From Armatimonadota bacterium (GTDB lineage Bacteria > Armatimonadota > HRBIN16): a stretch of 64,000 nt of DNA. This document shows positions 24,556-58,723 of this stretch, piece by piece. The notes under the pieces are model-generated. The model ran no database searches, was not told the origin of the DNA, and worked only from the letters and a program-made list of their open reading frames with translations. The stretch spans positions 2,486,264-2,550,263 of the forward strand of contig OW818647.1 in assembly GCA_942492855.1 (NCBI GenBank), written 5' to 3'. The position numbers and the translations under genes were made by a program. Each line of letters starts with the position of its first letter. The stretch's first letter is position 1.

Positions 24556-24681
24556 GTTCGTATGGTCAGTGGCAGGGACACGGGCATGGTGGTGATGGGG
24601 TTGTGGATGCGGGTGATTCGGCGTGCTGTCAGCTAAGTACATTGCCTGTATATCATATAATCTCCGCCGCGCCCTGAAGGA

Positions 24682-24909
24682 CAGTCTATTACCCACAAAT
24701 CCAGATTGGGATCGTATCGACCATGTGCCGCGACATTCATGTCTCGGCTATTGATCAACAAGCCCGCTAAACCGGGCTGCGGAGCTCCTTGCCGACAAAG
24801 ATAACGTTAATGAAGACTGCTTCAGCAGTCTTGGTGTTCAATAGCCGAGACATGAATGTCGCGGAATCGGTGACCTACTGGCCATGCAATATTTGTGGGT
24901 AATAGACTG
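24682..24909. mobile_element. MITE family 1 copy (~228 bp) with outer TIRs CAGTCTATTACCCACAAAT / ATTTGTGGGTAATAGACTG and internal IS-derived inverted repeats
   Basis: The outer 19-bp TIRs are perfect. Internally, CCGCGACATTCATGTCTCGGCTATTGA and its inverse copy flank a central palindrome GACTGCTTCAGCAGTC. These internal sequences are identical to the ends of the IS at 54334..56381. Confidence 0.6.
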
Positions 24910-26860: not shown

Positions 26861-26981
26861 GTTGAAGTTCCCCAGTTGATTGTAGTGATAGGTGCATGGA
26901 TTACTATATTCGGTAATAGCCATCAGTTATTGCTGCCATGTATATGTCAGCATCTGTATACCGACAGAAGGCATCCCTACG

Positions 26982-27208
26982 GGCACCCACGAAGTGGGTA
27001 TGATTCTTATAGCCAGGGGTGAGCGAAGCGATACCCCTGGAACGCGGCACATCTATCCTACCCCGAAGTGGGTCGCGCCTATTCGTAGCAGCCGCTATAT
27101 CAGTCACCAAATCCGACCCCCTTCGGGGGTAAATGCTTTTTGTCGCCTGCCACGGGTTGCGCTGGCGCTTACCCGTGGCTATAAGAATCTTACCCCATTC
27201 GGGGTGCC
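26982..27208. mobile_element. MITE family 2 copy (~227 bp), TIRs GGCACCCACGAAGTGGGTA / TACCCCATTCGGGGTGCC
   Basis: The terminal inverted repeats are seen directly. Subterminal TTCTTATAGCCAGGGGTGAGCG and its inverse CGCTTACCCGTGGCTATAAGAA are also present. A second full copy lies at 40766..40992 and a partial copy at 53891..53984. Confidence 0.55.
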
Positions 27209-27276
27209 GGACGCCTATAAGCTATGACAGATCGTTGACTATAGCACGGTCATCGATCATGGCTACTTGGCTAATG

Positions 27277-34545: not shown

Positions 34546-34714
34546 GAGGCCCCACCACGCGCTAAAGCACATGGCTATTGACATGCCAAGCCTGCTGAAG
34601 CAGGCTGCTGGGCTTCGCCCAGTCAGTGTGCGGGTAATGTACGGAGGCTGCACCCAGACTGCTTCAGCAGGCTTGATGTTCAATAGCCGAGACATTTATG
34701 TCGCGGAGTCGGAT
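34546..34714. mobile_element. Partial MITE family 1 copy (lacks outer TIRs)
   Basis: Contains CACGCGCTAAAGCACATGGCTATTGAC..., the GACTGCTTCAGCAGGC palindrome, and TCAATAGCCGAGACATTTATGTCGCGG. It is collinear, in inverted orientation, with the 40421..40660 copy. Confidence 0.5.
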
Positions 34715-40165: not shown

Positions 40166-40420
40166 AGTCTATATCTCCTGTCGCTCACGTATTTTTCTAT
40201 ACCAAATATAGTGTACCCTCCGGTGAAACATTGTGCCAAATTTCACAATGTATTGGTAGTGGGCGCATATGTTTCGGATGTCGGAGTGATTGAGAGAGTG
40301 GTTCTGCACCTATTCATCAGTCCAGTTCGATATAATACAATCACATATCATCCAGATATCGGTATCTATAAATGCATAGACATTCTAGTTTTTAAGATAC
40401 CATAGACTGATGTTTGAGAT

Positions 40421-40660
40421 CAGTCTACTACCCACAAATACCTAAGGAGCCAGCAGTCGCCGATTCCGCGACATAAATGTCTCGGCTATTGACCGGCCAA
40501 GCCTGCTGAAGCAGTCTGGGTGCCGCATCCAGCCACAAGGCGAAGTGGTGCTTCAACAGGCTTGGCCGGTCAATAGCCATGTGCTTTAGCGCGTGTTAGG
40601 GCAGGCATACATCGTTATATAACGATAAACCCCCGCTCGGACTTGTGGGAAATAGACTGG
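40421..40660. mobile_element. MITE family 1 copy (~240 bp)
   Basis: Outer TIRs CAGTCTACTACCCACAAAT / CTTGTGGGAAATAGACTG. Internal CCGCGACATAAATGTCTCGGCTATTGACC, central GCCTGCTGAAGCAGTCTG, and GGTCAATAGCCATGTG. Confidence 0.55.
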
Positions 40661-40765
40661 GTTCCTGCACCGCTCTGCTGATCAATAGCGGCCGGTGTCG
40701 CTGCGCTCCAACCGGTGTAGTGGGAGGGGACCACCGCAGCTAGTTTGGCCATGTCCGGGCCTCCG

Positions 40766-40992
40766 GGCACCCACGGAGTGGGTAGCAGTTCTTATAGCCA
40801 GGGGTGAGCGCAGCGATACCCCTGGTAAAGGGCCCCAGTGTTTACCCCCGAATGGGGGTCGAACCGACTGAAGAAGCTCAATATTCCGGTAACCATGCCG
40901 ACCCACGTCGGGGTAGGATGTTAACGGCTGTCATCCACGGGTTACGCTTACGCACCCGTGGCTGTAAGAATCCTACCCACTCCGTGGGTGCC
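40766..40992. mobile_element. MITE family 2 copy (227 bp) with perfect 19-bp TIRs GGCACCCACGGAGTGGGTA / TACCCACTCCGTGGGTGCC
   Basis: Same length and subterminal TTCTTATAGCCAGGGGTGAGCG / CGCACCCGTGGCTGTAAGAA repeats as the copy at 26982..27208. Confidence 0.55.
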
Positions 40993-51217: not shown

Positions 51218-53239
51218 ATGATGCGAAGAGTGTGGAGGGTTGTGGTATCAATCCTCGTGGTTCTATTGTGGCATTATGCGGCAGGTTTGGCTTGCCAGGC
51301 AGACGAGACGGGCAACCATGGCCCGGTGCTGTGGAGTGACCTTCCGCCTGCTGGGTGCCCGTTCCCAAAATCGACGACATATAAGGCCGTCTCCTTCCCT
51401 GGTCGATGGGCCAGCTACACTAATGCCGACACCTGGTACCTCTCATGGGCATCCGATGGAAACTGCTATTCGCCGTGGACAGACGGCAGCATTAACGGAT
51501 TTGAATGCACTTCGTTTGCAGCTCCGGCGGCGACAGGACAGGCTAAGGTGGCCGGATCAGACCCCATGAAGCTCACGATAACCAATCTGGGACGCATGAC
51601 AGCCTCACAAAGCCCACACGGTGGACGTTACCCTTGCGGTAGCCTGGTTCATGACGGGGTGTGGTATTACGGCAGCTACACCTTGGACAACGGGGTGGCC
51701 CCTGGTGCACAAGGTAACTGGAACCTGTTTGGTCCGTTTGTCGGCTTTCGGTATTCCACCGATTGGGATCACCTCACGACAAGCTGGGCAGACGGTTATT
51801 GGACGCAAGGCCCGCTCATGGATGATGCCTCGCAGCCATTGCTTGAGGCGAAAAGGCCAGTGCGGATTGGATCACCACACTTCGTCGATTTTGGCCAGAA
51901 CATGAAGCACTCCCCGGACGGCAAAGGGTATCTCGTGAGCCACGGTGCAGAAACGGCCGATGCGGTGCACAACTGGATTGAGGGTGACAGCATCTACCTG
52001 ACCCGTGTCAAACCATCCATAACGACTATTAACGACAAAACGGCCTACGAGTATTATGCAGGTTCCGACAGCAAGGGTGAGCCAAAGTGGTCAGGCAACT
52101 ACAGTGATATCAAGCCGATTCTGAGCTGGCCTGGTCACCTGGGCTGTGTGACCATCACCTATAATGCGCCTCATAAGCGGTACCTGATGTGCATCACCAA
52201 AGGTAAATCGGGTCAGAACTACGACACGATGATTCTAGAATCCAAAAAGCTCACTGGGCCGTGGAGCCTTGTCCATTACCTGCAAAACTTCGGTCCGCAG
52301 GCTTACTTTGTCAATATCCCATCCAAGTTCATCAGCAAGGATGGAAAGTCGATGTGGTTATGCTATTCCGCTAATTTCGAGCGGTCCGGCGGTAGCTCCG
52401 CGGGTTACCCCATAGGCTCCAGCTACGCACTGTGTCTTCAGGAAATGCGGCTCTACGGCAGCAAGGAGCCATTACCTCAGCGCAAAGGCACGATCGAAGC
52501 GGAGAGCTTCGCCCTAAGCGGGTCAGCCAGCGTGATCAGTGACAAGCTGGCATCTGGAGGAAGTGCGGTATCGGGTCTGGGCCCACAAGGCTCAGCATTG
52601 GAGCTTGCGATCGTAGCGCGGGCATCTCAGTTACATATCCGGTATTCCGCCAGCCGTCAAAGCATGATGGCTCTGTATATCAATGGAATTCGCAAACAGC
52701 AGATAGGTTTCGAAGCCACTGGCGGGGCTACGGGGTGTTACACCGTAAAGAGTATCGATGTGTACATCCCCGCCGGCGCGGCTCTACGGCTGCAATGCGA
52801 TGCAGATGGCGGCGATATGTCGGTTGACACCATCAGCATAGGCAGCAGGCGGCTTATCAATGGCAAAATAGAGGCGGAAGCTGGCGCGAAACTCAATGGA
52901 GCAGCCGACTACACTGATCCCGCTGCTTCTGGCGGCCAGATCGTGGCCTACCTCAATATAGTGGGCTCTTCCCTGGAGTTTGCCAACGTGATGGCCGCCA
53001 ACAGGGTGACCATCCGGTATGCCACTATCAACAACGGCACCTGTAGCCTGTATATTAATGGGCGGCATGTCCGCGACATCAACATCAGCTCAACCGGTGC
53101 ATGGACGGGCCAATATATGGATGTGTCGGTGGATGAAGACATACCAAAAGGCTCCGCCATCCGAGTGCAGTGCGACATCGGGGATGTGGGCATCAATGTG
53201 GATTATATCCGCCTGGAGATGCTCAAGGGGCCGCGATGA
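51218..53239 (+). CDS. Secreted protein with N-terminal BNR/Asp-box-like beta-propeller-type domain and two C-terminal CBM6/CBM35-like modules
   Basis: Signal peptide. Asp-box-like segments (SWASDGNCYSPW, YSTDWDHLTTSW). Two ~120-aa repeats beginning GTIEAESFALSG... and NGKIEAEAGAKLNG..., with the EAE...YxxG pattern of CBM6/35. Confidence 0.45.
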   Translation: MMRRVWRVVVSILVVLLWHYAAGLACQADETGNHGPVLWSDLPPAGCPFPKSTTYKAVSFPGRWASYTNADTWYLSWASDGNCYSPWTDGSINGFECTSFAAPAATGQAKVAGSDPMKLTITNLGRMTASQSPHGGRYPCGSLVHDGVWYYGSYTLDNGVAPGAQGNWNLFGPFVGFRYSTDWDHLTTSWADGYWTQGPLMDDASQPLLEAKRPVRIGSPHFVDFGQNMKHSPDGKGYLVSHGAETADAVHNWIEGDSIYLTRVKPSITTINDKTAYEYYAGSDSKGEPKWSGNYSDIKPILSWPGHLGCVTITYNAPHKRYLMCITKGKSGQNYDTMILESKKLTGPWSLVHYLQNFGPQAYFVNIPSKFISKDGKSMWLCYSANFERSGGSSAGYPIGSSYALCLQEMRLYGSKEPLPQRKGTIEAESFALSGSASVISDKLASGGSAVSGLGPQGSALELAIVARASQLHIRYSASRQSMMALYINGIRKQQIGFEATGGATGCYTVKSIDVYIPAGAALRLQCDADGGDMSVDTISIGSRRLINGKIEAEAGAKLNGAADYTDPAASGGQIVAYLNIVGSSLEFANVMAANRVTIRYATINNGTCSLYINGRHVRDINISSTGAWTGQYMDVSVDEDIPKGSAIRVQCDIGDVGINVDYIRLEMLKGPR

Positions 53240-53649
53240 GGGGGGAATGTGGTTGGACGTCGTGGTGCGGGTTTGTCATGCCGTGAATTCGTGGATGGCC
53301 CTTGTGGCCATCCGTAACCCAATGGCGCGGGTCAAAACGGCATCACGGAAAGCCAGTCGGTGGCGCGTTACGGGGTGGGTGGCCATCTTGCCGCGGGTTT
53401 AGTCACCCACACGACTACGTTCCGGGAGCTGACGCTCCGGGAACTGCGTCCAGTGCGGGTTCCTGCACCGCGCGGCTGATCATTAGCGGCCGGCGTCGCT
53501 TCGCTCCGGCCGGCGCAGGACAGGGTGCCCGTCCCCAACGCCCGCCGGAACGCGGGCCGGTATTGATCAGCGATGGGTGACAGCGCCCGTACCGGGACGA
53601 AGTCACGGACGGGCCGCCGAACCCATCGGCGTTGGGGTGGTGGATATTA

Positions 53650-53735
53650 CGGCCATCAGGCAGCAGTGCGACACCGGGGACGTGGGCATCAATGTGGATT
53701 ACATCTGCTTGGAGATGGTCAAGTGGCCTCGGTGA
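53650..53735 (+). pseudogene. Orphan 3'-end fragment duplicated from the gene at 51218..53239 (encodes ...QQCDTGDVGINVDYICLEMVKWPR*)
   Basis: 53664..53801 is ~90% identical to 53166..53305, i.e. the last ~70 nt of the CBM-protein CDS plus ~70 nt downstream, including the GGATGGCCCTTGTGGCCATCC palindrome. There is no upstream ORF continuity. Confidence 0.5.
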
Positions 53736-53890
53736 GGGGGGTGGATGTGGTGCGGGTTTGTCATGCCGTGAATTCGTAGGGATGGCCCTTGTGGCCATCC
53801 GCACACGCACGATGACACCAACCATCCTATATATATGTTTAAGTTATGGTCATTGGCAACGATGTTTTACGTCCTAATTACAGATGGTGT

Positions 53891-53984
53891 GACCCACTTC
53901 GGGGTAGGAATGATGCATCGTCAACCACGGGTTGCGCTAACGATTACCCGTGGCTATAAGAATCATACCCACTCCGTGGGTGCC
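53891..53984. mobile_element. Partial MITE family 2 copy (right half only)
   Basis: CACGGGTTGCGCTAACGATTACCCGTGGCTATAAGAATCATACCCACTCCGTGGGTGCC matches the right arm of the 26982 and 40766 copies. Confidence 0.45.
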
Positions 53985-54393
53985 CGGACAACTGGTTGTG
54001 TAAACCTGCCAGGACATCCACATTTCGATAGACATCGTCGGTTTTGTGCCGCGACATCAATGTCTCGGCTATTACCCACATCTCCCCGCCGCGCCCTGAA
54101 GGACGGCGGCTTATTAACCGGTAAGCCGGCTGGAAGCCGGCTGCAGGCACGAAATCTGGTTTGAGAACGTGTAGAAACGGTGAGGTATGGTGTCTTTGCA
54201 CTTGGTGTCTCGGTATTTCAGACGTCTTCAGACGGCTTTTCGGATAAGAAGCCGCCGTCCATCAGGGCGCGGCGGAGTGGCAAACACCATCATATAACGA
54301 TAAAACACCACGTTCCGACATGTGGGTAATAGACTGACATCAATGTCTCGGCTATTGATAAAAAAGACTGCTGAAGCAGTCTCTGAACTTTGG

Positions 54394-55851
54394 CTATTTC
54401 ATCGCATACAGCCACGCAGGATATTGGTGAATTTCGGAGTTTTGACGGCTTCGTGTTTTGGAATTTGACATAGGATGTATCGACGCTTGTAGCCTTGACA
54501 CGACATCCCCATAGTCACGCTCATTCGGCGAGTCAATTACCTCTTGCCTCATAAACATAGCCAATCGATTAGTCGATAACCTGCCATCAATCGTTCGACG
54601 CTGCCACTTAGGCCTGGGCAGCTCCTCATCCTTCACACCAGAAATTATCGCAGCGAGATGCATTAAACTATATACCCATACCAGAAACGGAATGACATTG
54701 CAGACTGAGTTCTCACACCATACCTGCGGATCACCGATACCAAAGTAGCTTTTCTCCTCACGAAACGCCACCTCCTGCTCCCACCTCCAGATATATAACT
54801 GCACAACCTGTTCAATTGGCATATCTGGATCAGAACACAGGACGTAAGCCGGGTTTCGATATAGTATCCTTCCGTGCTTCCAGAGTCTATATGGTGTTGG
54901 TGCAACCACGATCAGTCTGAAATCTTGAGCTCCTACCCCTCTCCATCTCACTCGGTCGACGGTCTTGATCCTCACAACGTGGAATTTGCCAGACGAGTAA
55001 ACGCATATGTGTTCCCATTCATATGAATCGTCCTGTCGTATCAGGTCAGGCTTGGGTACAGGGTCTCCATATACACGTCGCTTTCCAGTTTTTGGCTGCT
55101 TGTCTGGCAGTTTCGTCAACTTGGCATCACGACGTAACCGTCCAATGATCGTGGTGTTCTCCGGGATTTTAGTCAACATGGTCTTGTTCATGTAACCTCC
55201 ATCTACCGTTAACACAAGCCGCCTGTGCCTTGAGTTTGGGTCCTCATCCATTCTTTCGCGTAGCTCCTTCATGGCGTCAGCCCCCACCTTGGTAACCCGG
55301 CAGGCCTTCTGGTCCGTCTTGTATTGGCTGCGCTGCTCGTCAGTCGCTTTCGGACCTGGCTTCTTGGGAGTAGGTGCGTGCAGCATGTTAATAGGGATAG
55401 CAGTGGCCCGGCTATGATATCCGTTGAAGGGGACAAGAGCTGATAACTGAACACAACGCTGACCATGTATGAAGTTCGGGCGGTATTTTGGCCCTTGAGG
55501 GTCTCTACGTAAGGAGACGCCATGCCCCTTTGTCCCTTTGCGCGGGATTATCGTATCATCCATCGCGACAACAAACGGCATGTTCTCTGGAGTGAGGCTG
55601 ATCGCTTGCTGTAAAACGGTGTCCCAGCACTGGGACACCGAGATACGGTTTTGTTCAAAGATGCGGTAATACGCTGACCAGTCTTTGTCAGCCTGACCAG
55701 CTGTCTGGATGATCCCTGTGATTGTGTGTCTTCCGACGGTTGCCGTGGCCGCCAGAGCGATCTGCTGGGACTTTTCATAGGTTCGCTGTTGGTTAAACGC
55801 ATCGCGTGCCAGTTCATAGAGAAGCATAAATGCAGGCAATACTTTGCTCAT
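54394..55851 (-). CDS. IS4-family DDE transposase
   Basis: 485 aa with the C-terminal YREK signature block LYIWRWEQEVAFREEK (Y-x2-R-x3-E-x6-K), typical of IS4/IS701/ISH3-type transposases. Confidence 0.8.
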   Translation of the reverse strand: MSKVLPAFMLLYELARDAFNQQRTYEKSQQIALAATATVGRHTITGIIQTAGQADKDWSAYYRIFEQNRISVSQCWDTVLQQAISLTPENMPFVVAMDDTIIPRKGTKGHGVSLRRDPQGPKYRPNFIHGQRCVQLSALVPFNGYHSRATAIPINMLHAPTPKKPGPKATDEQRSQYKTDQKACRVTKVGADAMKELRERMDEDPNSRHRRLVLTVDGGYMNKTMLTKIPENTTIIGRLRRDAKLTKLPDKQPKTGKRRVYGDPVPKPDLIRQDDSYEWEHICVYSSGKFHVVRIKTVDRVRWRGVGAQDFRLIVVAPTPYRLWKHGRILYRNPAYVLCSDPDMPIEQVVQLYIWRWEQEVAFREEKSYFGIGDPQVWCENSVCNVIPFLVWVYSLMHLAAIISGVKDEELPRPKWQRRTIDGRLSTNRLAMFMRQEVIDSPNERDYGDVVSRLQASIHPMSNSKTRSRQNSEIHQYPAWLYAMK

Positions 55852-56039
55852 CGCTCTTCATCCTCCGAAATGACAGCATTCGACCTGACCATCATCATGA
55901 TGTTTTTGTCAATGATCACCCACTCCACGACTTCACCCTTTTGTAGCTCGATGGCATCAGCGACTGTGGCGGGGAAGTTGACATACCATTGGTGACGGCC
56001 TTTGTAGTTGATGTGCTGCACTCTCGTTTTGGCTCCCAT
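55848..56039 (-). CDS. Small AbrB/MazE-like (swapped-hairpin) DNA-binding protein inside the IS, co-oriented and overlapping the transposase start by 4 bp
   Basis: A 63-aa ORF. INYKGRHQWYVNFPATVADAIELQKGEVVEWVIID resembles the MazE/AbrB pattern K.G.s..v.iP......l.l..Gd.v.......i. The ATGA overlap with the transposase start suggests translational coupling. Confidence 0.3.
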   Translation of the reverse strand: MGAKTRVQHINYKGRHQWYVNFPATVADAIELQKGEVVEWVIIDKNIMMMVRSNAVISEDEER

Positions 56040-56455
56040 ATGGTTCCCTCCAATCTAGTTATCACTTATGAAATATCATACATTACAATAGATAATCAAT
56101 AGCTTTATGGATAATATTCTGACGTTTGTGTGATATTTCAAAGATATGCTGTTACTAATAGAAATAACAGCTGGCGCGCTGGGCATACATCATGGGGTCG
56201 GTGTGTTTTCGAGTGGAGTGAAACGGTAGACTACAAGGTCGCTAGTGTGGAAACATTCAAAAGGCCAAAGCTCAGAGACTGCTGAAGCAGTCTGCGGAGT
56301 CGTTCACACCACCAGCACGAATTGCTAGAGGCCGTTTTAACGGTCTTGATGATCAATAGCCGAGACATTGATGTCGCGGCATCGGTGGCACGCAGGAATA
56401 CGATTAATGCGCCTGCCCTCACCGGCGCGGGGAACCCGCGCCGGTGGTGGTGTGG

Positions 56456-58723
56456 TTACTTCGTCTGGACGGTTAGGCGCTTCATGTCGGCGTCGGTCAG
56501 TGTCTCCTGGCCTTTGGGGCCGATCTCCACTGCGTTGTTGTTGGCGAGAATCGCGCGCACATTGCCCAGCGTTGAGTACTGCGCCAACTTGGGGTAGGCC
56601 TTCAGCAGCTTGAAGTGCGCGTCGGAGAACTGCTTGATCTGCATCGCCTTCTGGTCAGGCATCAGACCCGCGTCCTCCCAGAACTCACCGCGCTGGTAGA
56701 AGGTGCGCGAAGCCACATTCTGTACGTTCGCCACAATCACGGTGCGGTCGTAGGCGTCCTGGTAGGTGCCGCCGATGCGTCGGTTGGCTGCCGTCTTGCC
56801 GAGTTGGGTGGAATTGGTCATGCCGCTGGCGGGCATATTCAACATTCCAGGGGCCTGGGCAGCGTTTTTGCCGCTGTTGGAGTTGGAACTCTGGGCGACG
56901 CTGTAGGCTCCGGTGGTGACATCTGCTGCCTCAGCCGACTGCTGGCGCATCTGCACGATGCCCATCTGTAATTGGGCCTCAGTCTTGCGCTCATCCGCCA
57001 GGAAGGACGTGTATTCGGTGGGTATTCCATACTTCTTGGACAGCCGCACCACCTCGTCAATCAGCTCCTGGTTGGAGTGCAGCCGGATCTCGTCCAGCAG
57101 GTAGCCGATTTTACGCGAGGCCCATAGCTGGGCGATGAACTGATGCGCATCTCCGCTATCGGGCAGACGGCTTTTCAGCACGAAACTCTTCTTCTGGTCA
57201 CCCGCTGTGCCTTTGAGGATCACTTTGACATCGCCTGAGCCCTGGTAACGACCGAGCACGATGAGCTGGGTGCCGGTGAAGATATCGGGCAGGTCGGTGT
57301 TGGGGTATCTATCACTGGTCTTGAGCCCCTGGATTTCCAGAGTCACGTCCGACAGCAGGGGGTCGCTGACTTTGGCAAAGAAGGTGCTGATTTTGGCCTC
57401 GATGCTCTCCCTCGGACGCACATAGTCACTCGCACCGCGGTTTTGCTCCGAGAGTTTGTCCAGCAGGTGGGTGTTCACATCGTAACCCACACCGAACACG
57501 AACATCCGCGCTTTGGAGTTCTTGGCATTAGTCAGAATGACCTGCGGGTCCGTGTTGCCGGCCGTGGGCTGACCATCGGTGATGAAGATCACATAGTTGT
57601 TTGCTGAGTCGACGCTTGAAAACTGCTTGCGTGCGCTGATCAGGGCATCGTTGATGTTGGTGCCACCCGTTGCATCGAGCTCCTCAACCGTGCCGAGGGC
57701 CTTTTTACGGGTGTCGATGTTGAATTTCTGCAGCCCCGGGAACAGCAGGTCGGGGGTTTCGTTGAAGGTGATCACGTTGAAACTGTCCTGCGGCTTCAGG
57801 GAGTTCAGGCAGAAGGTGAGTGCCTGCTTCGCCTGATCCATTTTTTCGCCAGCCATGCTGCCGGTGCGGTCCAGAACGAAAACTACATTCTTGGGCTGCA
57901 CTTTGGCCTTCGCCACTTCCACACGCGGGCTGGCCAGAAGCATGTAATAACCGGGCTCACCGGGCTGTTTGTGCGCCACAAGATCGATGCCGACATCGTC
58001 ATCTGAAACCGAGTAGAACAGCTCCATATCCGTATCCGGCGTGCTGTTCTTAACCGACCAGGTCACGGTGGCCTCGCGGTCAGAGGTTCGGTCTACCAGC
58101 ACTTGATGGGTGGGCGAATAGACGCTGGTGATCGGTCTGGTGGCACTGATCTTGATGGTGACTTTGCAGTCCTCCAGCGGCCGGGCGGAGAACCGCTCCG
58201 TGCTGAGGGGGTAGACGTATCGGCAGACGTTGCCGGTCTTCTTCACCACCTCCGCGTAGCTTAAGCGAATCCGCTTATCACCATTCGCGGGGATGGGGTA
58301 GACACGCGCGCGGAAGGTGTTGCGGCCGATGTATTCCAGTATCGCCGGGTCTTTGCGCTGCCTGACGATGGATTCGTATATATTTCTGGCTTCGTCTTTA
58401 TCAAGTATCTTGCCAAGTATCTCTTCCTCACCGGCATACATGGAGAACTTGGTGATGGCGGAACCCTCCGGCATTGGGAATATGTACATACCCTCGCGGT
58501 CCACACCGCTGTCGTTGTGGAATATCTGGTCGACCTTAGTCGTGCAGAGTTGGTCCTGGATGTTGACATTCACGTGATGGTATTTCACGGTGAATAGTTC
58601 CTTGGGCATCATGATGCTGGTATTGGGCCGTTCGATGGGGAAGATCATACCATCTGCCAATGCGCCGATACTGACCAACATAGACAGCATCAGTATGGGG
58701 ATTACGTATTTTCGTGCCTTCAT
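56456..58723 (-). CDS. Secreted VIT + von Willebrand factor A (VWA) domain protein
   Basis: The ATG at 58723 is preceded by GGAGGA, and the signal peptide is MKARKYVIPILMLSMLVSIGALA. N-terminal VIT-like region. VWA MIDAS motif in NVVFVLDRTGSMAGEKMDQAKQAL ... ATGGTNINDAL. Confidence 0.7.
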   Translation of the reverse strand: MKARKYVIPILMLSMLVSIGALADGMIFPIERPNTSIMMPKELFTVKYHHVNVNIQDQLCTTKVDQIFHNDSGVDREGMYIFPMPEGSAITKFSMYAGEEEILGKILDKDEARNIYESIVRQRKDPAILEYIGRNTFRARVYPIPANGDKRIRLSYAEVVKKTGNVCRYVYPLSTERFSARPLEDCKVTIKISATRPITSVYSPTHQVLVDRTSDREATVTWSVKNSTPDTDMELFYSVSDDDVGIDLVAHKQPGEPGYYMLLASPRVEVAKAKVQPKNVVFVLDRTGSMAGEKMDQAKQALTFCLNSLKPQDSFNVITFNETPDLLFPGLQKFNIDTRKKALGTVEELDATGGTNINDALISARKQFSSVDSANNYVIFITDGQPTAGNTDPQVILTNAKNSKARMFVFGVGYDVNTHLLDKLSEQNRGASDYVRPRESIEAKISTFFAKVSDPLLSDVTLEIQGLKTSDRYPNTDLPDIFTGTQLIVLGRYQGSGDVKVILKGTAGDQKKSFVLKSRLPDSGDAHQFIAQLWASRKIGYLLDEIRLHSNQELIDEVVRLSKKYGIPTEYTSFLADERKTEAQLQMGIVQMRQQSAEAADVTTGAYSVAQSSNSNSGKNAAQAPGMLNMPASGMTNSTQLGKTAANRRIGGTYQDAYDRTVIVANVQNVASRTFYQRGEFWEDAGLMPDQKAMQIKQFSDAHFKLLKAYPKLAQYSTLGNVRAILANNNAVEIGPKGQETLTDADMKRLTVQTK

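Follow-up and report, generated by a model that had tools for sequence, protein, structure and literature searches.

Structure of the locus

We analysed a 64,000-nucleotide stretch of contig OW818647.1 from an Armatimonadota bacterium (the window; positions are those of the window unless another contig is named) and describe here an insertion sequence (IS) and the short hairpin-bearing element in which it lies. A reading made from the sequence alone, the sequence-only reading, had noted a resident insertion sequence in this region; an apparently intact DDE element is indeed present at 54383..56275, within a spacer of 3.2 kb, full of repeats, that separates two convergent genes. It carries two open reading frames (ORFs), a small gene (ORF1) followed by a transposase gene (ORF2), and it sits inside a MITE (a miniature transposable element with inverted repeats), an entire hairpin of which stands against the IS at either end as a target-site duplication (TSD). 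The features of the IS and of its host MITE are listed below; IRL and IRR are the left and right inverted repeats of the IS, and TIR denotes a terminal inverted repeat.

54383..56275, minus strand: the IS proper, 1893 bp, a two-ORF element of the IS701 family, delimited by the limits of homology to ten related contigs (L001–L010) and by a script that locates TIRs and TSDs
56258..56275, minus strand: IRL, CTGAGCTTTGGCCTTTTG on this strand, an end shared with relatives
54383..54400, plus strand: IRR, CTGAACTTTGGCTATTTC read inward, with the transposase stop codon inside it, from the sequence and the script
54394..55851, minus strand: ORF2, a DDE transposase of 485 amino acids, IS701 family by PF13546 (DDE_5) and NF049999
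55848..56039, minus strand: ORF1, 63 amino acids, AbrB/SpoVT-like, its stop codon overlapping the transposase ATG by 4 bp
54365..54382, plus strand: first TSD copy, the entire hairpin AGACTGCTGAAGCAGTCT, abutting the IS end and a 100% direct repeat of 56276–56293
56276..56293, plus strand: second TSD copy, the entire hairpin AGACTGCTGAAGCAGTCT, which is single in the IS-free MITE copies
54047..54073, plus strand: outer part of the left TIR of the host MITE, severed by a 262-bp insert, 27 of 27 nucleotides complementary to 56355–56381
54336..54364, plus strand: continuation of the host MITE as far as the hairpin, a repeated 21 bp of the TIR followed by GATAAAAA
56294..56381, plus strand: remaining part of the host MITE, made up of a spacer, the native second hairpin GAGGCCGTTTTAACGGTCTT and the right TIR; the MITE copies A, B and C of the window and the metagenome copy L100 are collinear with it

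Boundaries of the insertion sequence

Relatives with a transposase 89–90% identical to that of the window (P0001) occur on many short metagenome contigs. BLAST comparison of window positions 53800–56700 with ten contigs of the P0001 type (L001–L010) gave a single block of ~1895 bp, equivalent to window ~54383–56275. The ten contigs, with an IS 89% identical to ours, have common ends, opening with CTGAACTTTGGCCTTTTGAATG... and closing with ...GAAATAGCCAAAGTTCAG; beyond these they diverge completely, the flanks changing immediately outside CTGAAC...GTTCAG. We place the IS at 54383..56275 because homology to ten copies with unrelated flanks stops at those bases, and a script searching for a TIR with a flanking repeat returned identical bounds. 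The termini form imperfect 17-bp inverted repeats (CTGAGCTTTGGCCTTTT / CTGAACTTTGGCTATTT). A single-protein scan of genome contigs found no relative; when 185,579 species genomes were scanned with an alignment instead, 78 loci (L011–L088) with transposases 36–43% identical to that of the window were found. The conserved termini CTnnnnTTTGGC...GCCAAAnnnnAG are present in these 78 relatives, the CTnnnnTTTGGC end in all of them. Judging from P0130, P0132 and P0133 and from fragments, at least three intact transposase copies and three frameshifted ones exist in the source genome itself; P0132 is identical to the window protein.

The sequence-only reading had drawn a larger element, an IS of ~2.05 kb (54336/54050..56381) with 26-bp TIRs (CCGCGACATCAATGTCTCGGCTATTGAT) and subterminal palindromes, of which the MITEs of the window would be deletion derivatives. 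Perfect inverted repeats (27 of 27) do bracket the transposase gene, and the MITE copies end in the same repeats. However, homology to relatives ends at 54383 and 56275: the ten 89%-identical copies and the 78 distant relatives never carry the 26-bp repeats, and their homology stops 18–106 bp further in, at CTnnnnTTTGGC. The CCGCGACATC... repeat beside the IS is absent in all ten close-relative contigs. The MITE is, moreover, complete and collinear with its paralogues after removal of the IS and one hairpin, and the palindromes are direct rather than inverted repeats. We regard the larger element as very improbable.

The host MITE and its duplicated hairpin

The 26-bp repeats (CCGCGACATCAATGTCTCGGCTATTGA) are the ends of a MITE of ~138 bp. 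At the locus they appear as a perfect 27-nucleotide inverted repeat of the TGCCGCGACATCAATGVTCTCGGCTATT type (exact text TGCCGCGACATCAATGTCTCGGCTATT) at 54047–54073 and 56355–56381, with a third, 5'-truncated copy at 54336–54358; with up to three mismatches the 26-mer occurs seven times in the window, where shuffled sequences give an expectation of zero. From the stopping of IS homology at 54383 and 56275 it follows that the IS is a guest in one MITE copy and, contrary to the earlier proposal, that the MITEs were not built from IS ends. The two sets of ends, CTGAGCTTTGGCC... for the IS and CCGCGACATCAATGTCTCGGCTATTGA for the MITE, are without similarity.

The 18-bp palindrome AGACTGCTGAAGCAGTCT lies directly outside the IS at both ends, and its two copies are direct repeats because both have the loop TGAA on the plus strand. 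The pair, previously taken for subterminal parts of the IS, is an 18-bp direct target-site duplication of the hairpin of the host MITE. Taking away the IS, one hairpin and the 262-bp insert reconstructs a pre-insertion locus that reads TIR, GATAAAAA, hairpin, spacer, GAGGCCGTTTTAACGGTCTT, TIR. Copies A, B and C of the MITE align collinearly with it, as does L100, an independent copy on a JGI metagenome contig that reads ...CTATTGAATAAAAAGACTGCTGAAGCAGTCTGTGATTTCG... at the site, and the hairpin is single in all four. The repeats, palindromes, MITE copies and outer TIRs catalogued by the sequence-only reading are all in the sequence.

The same arrangement would arise without any duplication if this MITE copy had already possessed tandem hairpins and the IS had landed between them with no TSD. 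MITE copy C does have two similar hairpins, in inverted orientation, and palindromes resembling repetitive extragenic palindromes (REPs) are often clustered. Yet the four IS-free copies (A, B, C and L100) have a single hairpin at the site, and the host copy retains its own second hairpin at 56325–56344. In addition, 43 other insertions, at unrelated and mostly unique hairpins, show the same direct duplication (see below), and each of them would need a pre-existing perfect tandem pair. A landing between ready-made tandem hairpins is therefore most unlikely, and we retain duplication of a single hairpin. The closest relative behaves alike, and in two of its contigs the IS lies at hairpins of a second MITE family: in L003 at the hairpin AGCCGGCTGGAAGCCGGCT of this family, whose intact window copy is at 54124–54251, and in L001 at a hairpin formed by its TIR.

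Whole-hairpin duplication in related elements

Six long-read metagenome-assembled genomes (MAGs), from Armatimonadetes, Marinilabiliaceae, Prolixibacteraceae, Bacteroidales and two 'delta proteobacteria', have three to six copies each of a related IS at ~99% identity. The ends in these genomes were set by copy-to-copy homology; every copy has a GC-rich hairpin of its own, which stands on both sides of it as a direct repeat. A scripted survey gave 37 relatives and the window with hairpin duplications, and six more came from contigs found through ORF1 homologues. These 43 related insertions represent no fewer than 15 IS lineages, spread over several phyla, and with the window they make a set of 44. 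The duplications are 15–34 bp long (median 22.5 bp over 38 loci) and exact in 41 of the 44. Each is one complete hairpin, specific to its site and symmetric about the dyad, with a stem of 6–15 bp in the 38 folded loci. The edges are flush with the stem in 23 insertions and leave one unpaired nucleotide on each side in the other 21; no additional pairing extends beyond the duplication in 32.

The target hairpins are unrelated in sequence. Intrinsic terminators were considered as the specific target and rejected as a rule, only 14 of 38 targets being bordered on at least one side by a tract of T or A. Some targets (in L073, L090 and L095) are GTAG-tagged REP-like palindromes (TGTAGAGAC...GTCTCTACA), for which PMC3733652 provides the comparison. 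Where no duplication could be detected, the locus is in most cases a short-read contig of roughly the length of the IS, probably chimeric across copies.

Two of the loci show particular flanks. In the Armatimonadetes MAG (L015) the two 30-bp hairpin copies differ at three positions in or next to the loop (GGGGATAACTCC versus GGGGATGATCCC), which may reflect mutation after insertion or long-read error. On contig ctg81519l of ERZ21831265 (L092/L093) two identical IS stand head to tail with a 44-bp palindrome between them; the same palindrome precedes the first copy and a different hairpin follows the second, which points to a further insertion at a duplicated hairpin, to recombination between the copies, or to both.

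Transposase and family assignment

The IS had been placed in the IS4 family, an assignment that the profile searches overturn. The transposase matches PF13546 (DDE_5) with an E-value of 2.6e-18 (67 bits against a cut-off of 27) and the curated NCBIfam hidden Markov model NF049999 (transpos_IS701_3) with 204.8 bits against a cut-off of 170, which places it in IS701. IS4 proper (DDE_Tnp_1 with the YREK motif) was rejected: PF01609 (DDE_Tnp_1, IS4 type) gives 18.1 bits, under its cut-off of 23, and the NCBIfam IS4 models, at 22–26 bits, fall far under cut-offs of 115–250.

Canonical IS701 members carry a single ORF. Their length is 1400–1550 bp and their target-site duplication is exactly 4 bp (PMC2266710). 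Measured against a duplication of exactly 4 bp, or 5 bp for the ISAba11 group, the window has 18 bp and the 43 relatives 15–34 bp; the window element is 1893 bp long and the relatives 1734–1894 bp, with two ORFs throughout. The present clade is like IS701, ISRso17 and ISAba11 in its matches to the family models PF13546 and NF049999, but differs from them in its size of 1.73–1.9 kb, in its second conserved gene and in duplicating a whole hairpin. The IS ends, CT(C/G)NNNTTTGGC, resemble the CTCGACTTTGGCC of one annotated IS701-family element, the single element with which they were compared. As a control we used an IS701-family element on Microvirga plasmids that is 24% identical, 1476 bp long and has similar ends (CTCGACTTTGGCC). 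The terminal sequence CTCGAGTTTGGCC of the present IS resembles that of this canonical-type relative, which has one ORF and no ORF1 and makes 5-bp duplications (CTAAG or CTTAC). Elsewhere in the plasmid collection searched, relatives were likewise found only at 25% identity or less.

The accessory gene ORF1

The 63-residue AbrB/MazE-like ORF that the sequence-only reading saw overlapping the transposase by 4 bp is real and weakly AbrB-like. The overlap, which suggests translational coupling, recurs in all ten close copies L001–L010, and ORF1 stands ahead of the transposase in essentially all of the 78 distant loci, as 61 distinct sequences; the conservation of the small ORF, proposed earlier as a check, is thereby borne out. 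The consensus is MGYPTKVQLIKRxxSEQWYVNFPSAVAQAMEFxxGExVEWxIEDK, with 15 invariant alignment columns, and ORF1 is better conserved than the transposase (40–51% versus 35–42% identity to the window proteins). A profile search with ORF1 returned at least 7969 clusters at 90% identity, mostly on contigs of ~1.7–2.5 kb, and the gene downstream is a DDE_5 transposase in all of the loci checked from the ORF1 side.

With PF04014 the ORF1 of the window reaches 14.8 bits at an E-value of 0.029, under the Pfam gathering threshold of 24.7; 21 of 23 ORF1 members match this model at E < 1, the best with an E-value of 8.2e-5. TIGR01439 is matched with E 0.089, and a profile search of PDB sequences gave C56 of pSSVi alone (E 0.52). 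A medium-confidence AlphaFold2 model of the monomer built from database homologues (predicted local distance difference test 70) has the predicted order β-β-α-β-β, as in a monomer of the swapped-hairpin β-barrel fold, which is an obligate dimer; the top Foldseek neighbours are MazE (2mrn and 1ub4) and C56 (7xi6), with E-values of 0.6–1.2 and a template-modelling score of ~0.32, which are not significant. ORF1 is a genuine conserved accessory gene whose similarity to AbrB/SpoVT proteins, as judged from these profile and model comparisons, is weak but consistent. It is like the SpoVT/AbrB proteins (MazE, AbrB, PrlF and VapB types) in size, in predicted topology, in its weak PF04014 and TIGR01439 matches with MazE and C56 as neighbours, and in having palindromic operator-like sites upstream of its own gene. 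It differs from them in belonging to an IS operon with no toxin or sporulation partner, and in scoring under the curated cut-offs while forming a tight cluster of its own with its 15 invariant columns.

JGI names some ORF1 homologues 'antitoxin component of MazEF' or 'YhaV-PrlF', and the small ORF at present bears the label 'hypothetical' or 'antitoxin' in databases. Together with the weak PF04014 match, the JGI names would suit an antitoxin from a degenerate MazEF/PrlF-type module travelling with the IS. A type II toxin–antitoxin system has an adjacent cognate toxin gene, however, and here the downstream gene is always the DDE_5 transposase, with no toxin-like ORF in ~90 loci; ORF1 also has no C-terminal toxin-binding extension, only a short basic tail after the β-barrel core. 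We find an antitoxin origin scarcely credible.

Of 39 lineages, 34 have an 18-bp palindrome, TCTAGTn6ACTAGA, a short way upstream of ORF1, and 31 have an ACTAGAT half-site at nucleotides 18–24 of the left end (CTAG at 18–20 of IRL), compared with 4 at IRR. The leader from IRL to ORF1 is 236 nucleotides long in the window lineage and ~105–140 nucleotides in the others, and it contains a further repeat:

56069..56140, minus strand: a 14-nucleotide inverted repeat (TGAAATATCATACA / TGTGTGATATTTCA) in the 236-bp leader, a possible candidate for the operator or promoter region of the window IS lineage

The left ends of most relatives (for example L016 1230–1265, L023, L045 and L055) have a terminator-like hairpin with a T-run between IRL and the ORF1 operator, which presumably blocks read-through from outside.

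From these motifs, we put at about an even chance the proposal that ORF1 is a dimeric DNA-binding protein acting on the ACTAGA motifs, which would serve as an autoregulator and/or as a cofactor marking IRL. A role in target capture is possible, on the basis of the strict co-occurrence of ORF1 with hairpin duplication. The contrary account, in which the transposase alone is responsible for hairpin targeting and the long duplication and ORF1 is merely a transcriptional autorepressor of the IS operon, is a serious one, to which we give somewhat less than an even chance. AbrB/MazE-type proteins are typically autorepressors, and the operator-like palindrome directly upstream of ORF1 is what such an account would lead one to look for. 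Two observations speak for a wider role. ORF1 and whole-hairpin duplication co-occur in every lineage examined and are both absent in the ORF1-less relative, a correlation with one control lineage, and the preference of the half-site for IRL over IRR suggests that ORF1 acts at the transposon end too.

Assessment of the reading and proposed mechanism

We conclude that 54383..56275 is very probably an intact 1893-bp IS701-family element on the minus strand, a guest in one copy of an unrelated MITE of ~138 bp whose hairpin was duplicated on its entry, and that whole-hairpin duplication is the rule of its clade. Several observations weigh against this conclusion. The window gives only one TSD for its own IS lineage, and the comparison at the locus is with paralogous MITE copies rather than with a true empty site. 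The ten closest-relative contigs have unlike hairpins on the two sides of the IS, which we tentatively attribute to chimeric short-read assembly over a multicopy repeat. In six of the 44 insertions the palindrome reaches 2–4 bp past the duplication, so that cutting is not always exactly at the foot. The hairpins flanking the IS in L026 (CAWEZA010000067.1) are mutually reverse-complementary (loop TTTAT versus ATAAA), whereas those of the paralogous L034 are direct; copies may have recombined and so produced an inversion, or the ends may have been joined in another way. The tandem pair at L092 has unlike outer flanks. As for ORF1, the AbrB assignment is weak on both the PF04014 score and the Foldseek E-value of ~0.6, and the window IS is without the TCTAGTn6ACTAGA palindrome, keeping only AACTAGAT at the ribosome-binding site.

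Across the set, the joints are symmetric about the target dyad, at the feet of the stem or one nucleotide outside them, and the full palindrome is found on both sides of the IS. In the prevailing view, transpososome geometry fixes the stagger with which a DDE transposase cuts its target, which is why duplication length is a family character. A transpososome of fixed stagger cannot yield staggers of 15–34 bp that track the stem length, and we infer that the structure of the target sets the stagger here. Two other schemes were discarded: insertion into the loop would split the hairpin, not duplicate it, and a molecular ruler is ruled out by the variable length of the duplication.

The simplest scheme that would fit the joints is one in which the transpososome reads DNA structure and not sequence. 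The target would be engaged as an extruded cruciform, that is a four-way junction; each of the two 3'-OH ends of the IS would attack one target strand, at the 5' foot of the hairpin on that strand; and repair synthesis across the gaps would copy the palindrome on each side. Judging from the joints in the sequences, we consider this scheme about equally likely to be right or wrong. RuvC, an RNase-H-fold Holliday-junction resolvase, offers a mechanistic analogue only: if a four-way junction were attacked symmetrically on two strands at its base, the outcome would be the symmetric stagger of one stem length that is observed. DDE transposases and RuvC share an RNase H-like fold; resolvases differ in cutting without joining, and we claim no homology. 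Insertion of this kind should be nearly neutral to the host, as each flank retains an intact hairpin or terminator: terminator or REP function would be kept, and the IS would be insulated from outside transcription.

The broadest form of the proposal is that a large cross-phylum subgroup of IS701-type elements has recruited an AbrB-fold protein and integrates by structure-specific strand transfer at the cruciform base, with duplications as long as the palindrome (15–34 bp, up to ~45 bp). We offer this tentatively, at rather less than an even chance of being correct.

Other MITE copies and nested insertions

The remaining features of the spacer and of the MITE families in the window are as follows.

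gene ending at 53239: a protein of 673 amino acids
gene with its 3' end at 56456, minus strand: a protein of 780 amino acids
24682..24909, plus strand: MITE copy A, an inner MITE (24728–24866) within outer TIRs, IS-free, with a single hairpin at 24814–24831
40421..40660, plus strand: MITE copy B, an inner MITE (40466–40604), one of its TIRs variant, enclosed by outer TIRs; its single hairpin is at 40500–40517
34546..34714, plus strand: MITE copy C, a complete inner MITE (34546–34708) with one variant TIR and without outer TIRs
54074..54335, plus strand: 262-bp nested insert in the left TIR of the host MITE, made up of one arm of an outer-TIR element (…ATGTGGGTAATAGACT) and a second MITE
54086–54275: the second MITE, 190 bp, with TIR CCGCCGCGCCCTGAAGGACGGCGG, inside the 262-bp insert

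Copy C had been called partial, and is better described as a complete inner MITE that has one variant TIR and no outer ones. The outer TIR (CAGTCTATTACCCACAAAT), which encloses copies A and B, occurs five times in the window, with none expected from shuffles. The nesting noted in the sequence-only reading stands; its suggestion that the IS had inserted into its own derivatives does not, as the host MITEs are unrelated to the IS. A search of Rfam families gave no match in 53000–57000.

The 262-bp insert is bracketed by a 21-bp direct repeat (GACATCAATGTCTCGGCTATT) at 54053–54073 and 54336–54356, which does not have the form of a normal TSD, nor that of a clean hairpin. A CTATT pentamer common to both elements lies at the left joint and suggests recombination rather than clean transposition. 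We considered and rejected an origin of the insert through the hairpin-duplicating process of the IS: the insert ends (ACCCACAT... / ...GGGTAATAGACT) are unlike those of the IS, and the flanking repeat forms no clean hairpin. A scan of metagenome contigs with the MITE TIR for the parent of the MITE gave one more MITE copy (L100) and no transposase between these TIRs. At 350–1700 of L100 (JGI Ga0118677_10140197) the right TIR of the MITE is truncated after …GAGACATTTG by another element with a transposase-like ORF of 380 amino acids on the minus strand. Since this copy is broken by a different element, the MITE family is a landing pad for more than one type of IS.

MITEs are repeatedly nested within one another in the source genome. 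At 24660–24682 MITE copy A adjoins half of a TIR of the second MITE family (CCGCCGCGCCCTGAAGGA abutting CAGTCTATT...), and at 40400–40421 a fragment of another outer-TIR end (CCATAGACTG) lies ahead of copy B. The junction of GGG with CAGTCTATTACCCAC is also present in L002 and L007. In the intergenic spacer, 53652–53801 is an 83%-identical duplicate of 53156–53314, the 3' end of the 673-residue gene with the REP-like hairpin downstream of it (GGATGGCCCTTGTGGCCATCC), and the short ORF 53577..53735 repeats the C-terminal ...GDVGINVDYI.LEM... of the 673-residue protein. A further repeat family of ~100 bp (…GTGACCCACTTCGGGGTAGG…) occurs at 53891–53989, 26980–27212 and 40762–40992, and, in the metagenome contigs L002, L005 and L007, is likewise adjacent to the related IS.

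Comparison with other hairpin-targeting elements and implications

The REP-targeting elements of the IS3 family (IS1397 and ISKpn1) and of the IS110 family (ISPpu9, ISPpu10 and ISPa11) are like the present clade in using extragenic palindromes as targets. Their insertions fall within the REP or next to it and cause little or no duplication, and in the IS110 group the REP is reportedly recognized via a guide RNA. Each uses one specific REP, whereas the present targets are unrelated in sequence and are duplicated whole. Another likeness in targeting, to hairpins without sequence specificity, is with IS1272 and TnSha1 of staphylococci, members of the IS1182 family that insert at hairpins and terminators with no primary-sequence specificity (PMC4923244, PMC5678879). 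IS1272 makes blunt cuts in the stem and deletes part of the hairpin, with no duplication (PMC4923244), while the present clade retains the whole hairpin and duplicates it, which sets it apart from the IS1182 type. The transposases also differ in family, that of IS1182 being related to IS5, and IS1272 has no AbrB-like ORF. The searchable literature on IS701 with hairpins, AbrB, terminators or cruciforms described no such behaviour, neither an AbrB-like gene in an IS701-type element nor a duplication of palindrome length, prior curation in ISfinder or TnPedia being possible.

It is easy to mistake units of hairpin, IS and hairpin, and nests of an IS in a MITE, for long TIRs or for the parents of MITEs, and this was the case at the window locus. 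The reading given here would mean that a whole clade, amounting to thousands of database clusters from Bacteroidota, Desulfobacterota, Armatimonadota, Lentisphaerota and other phyla, has a stagger set by the secondary structure of its target. A stagger of this kind would imply that extruded hairpins or cruciforms are recognized in vivo, and the insertions would serve as natural reporters of the sites at which these structures arise. A testable system for structure-directed integration would be the transposase, either by itself or together with its cofactor of 63–70 amino acids. If the proposal is true, a DDE transposase in these bacteria directs its element by the shape of the DNA and independently of its sequence, a form of 'safe-harbour' targeting.

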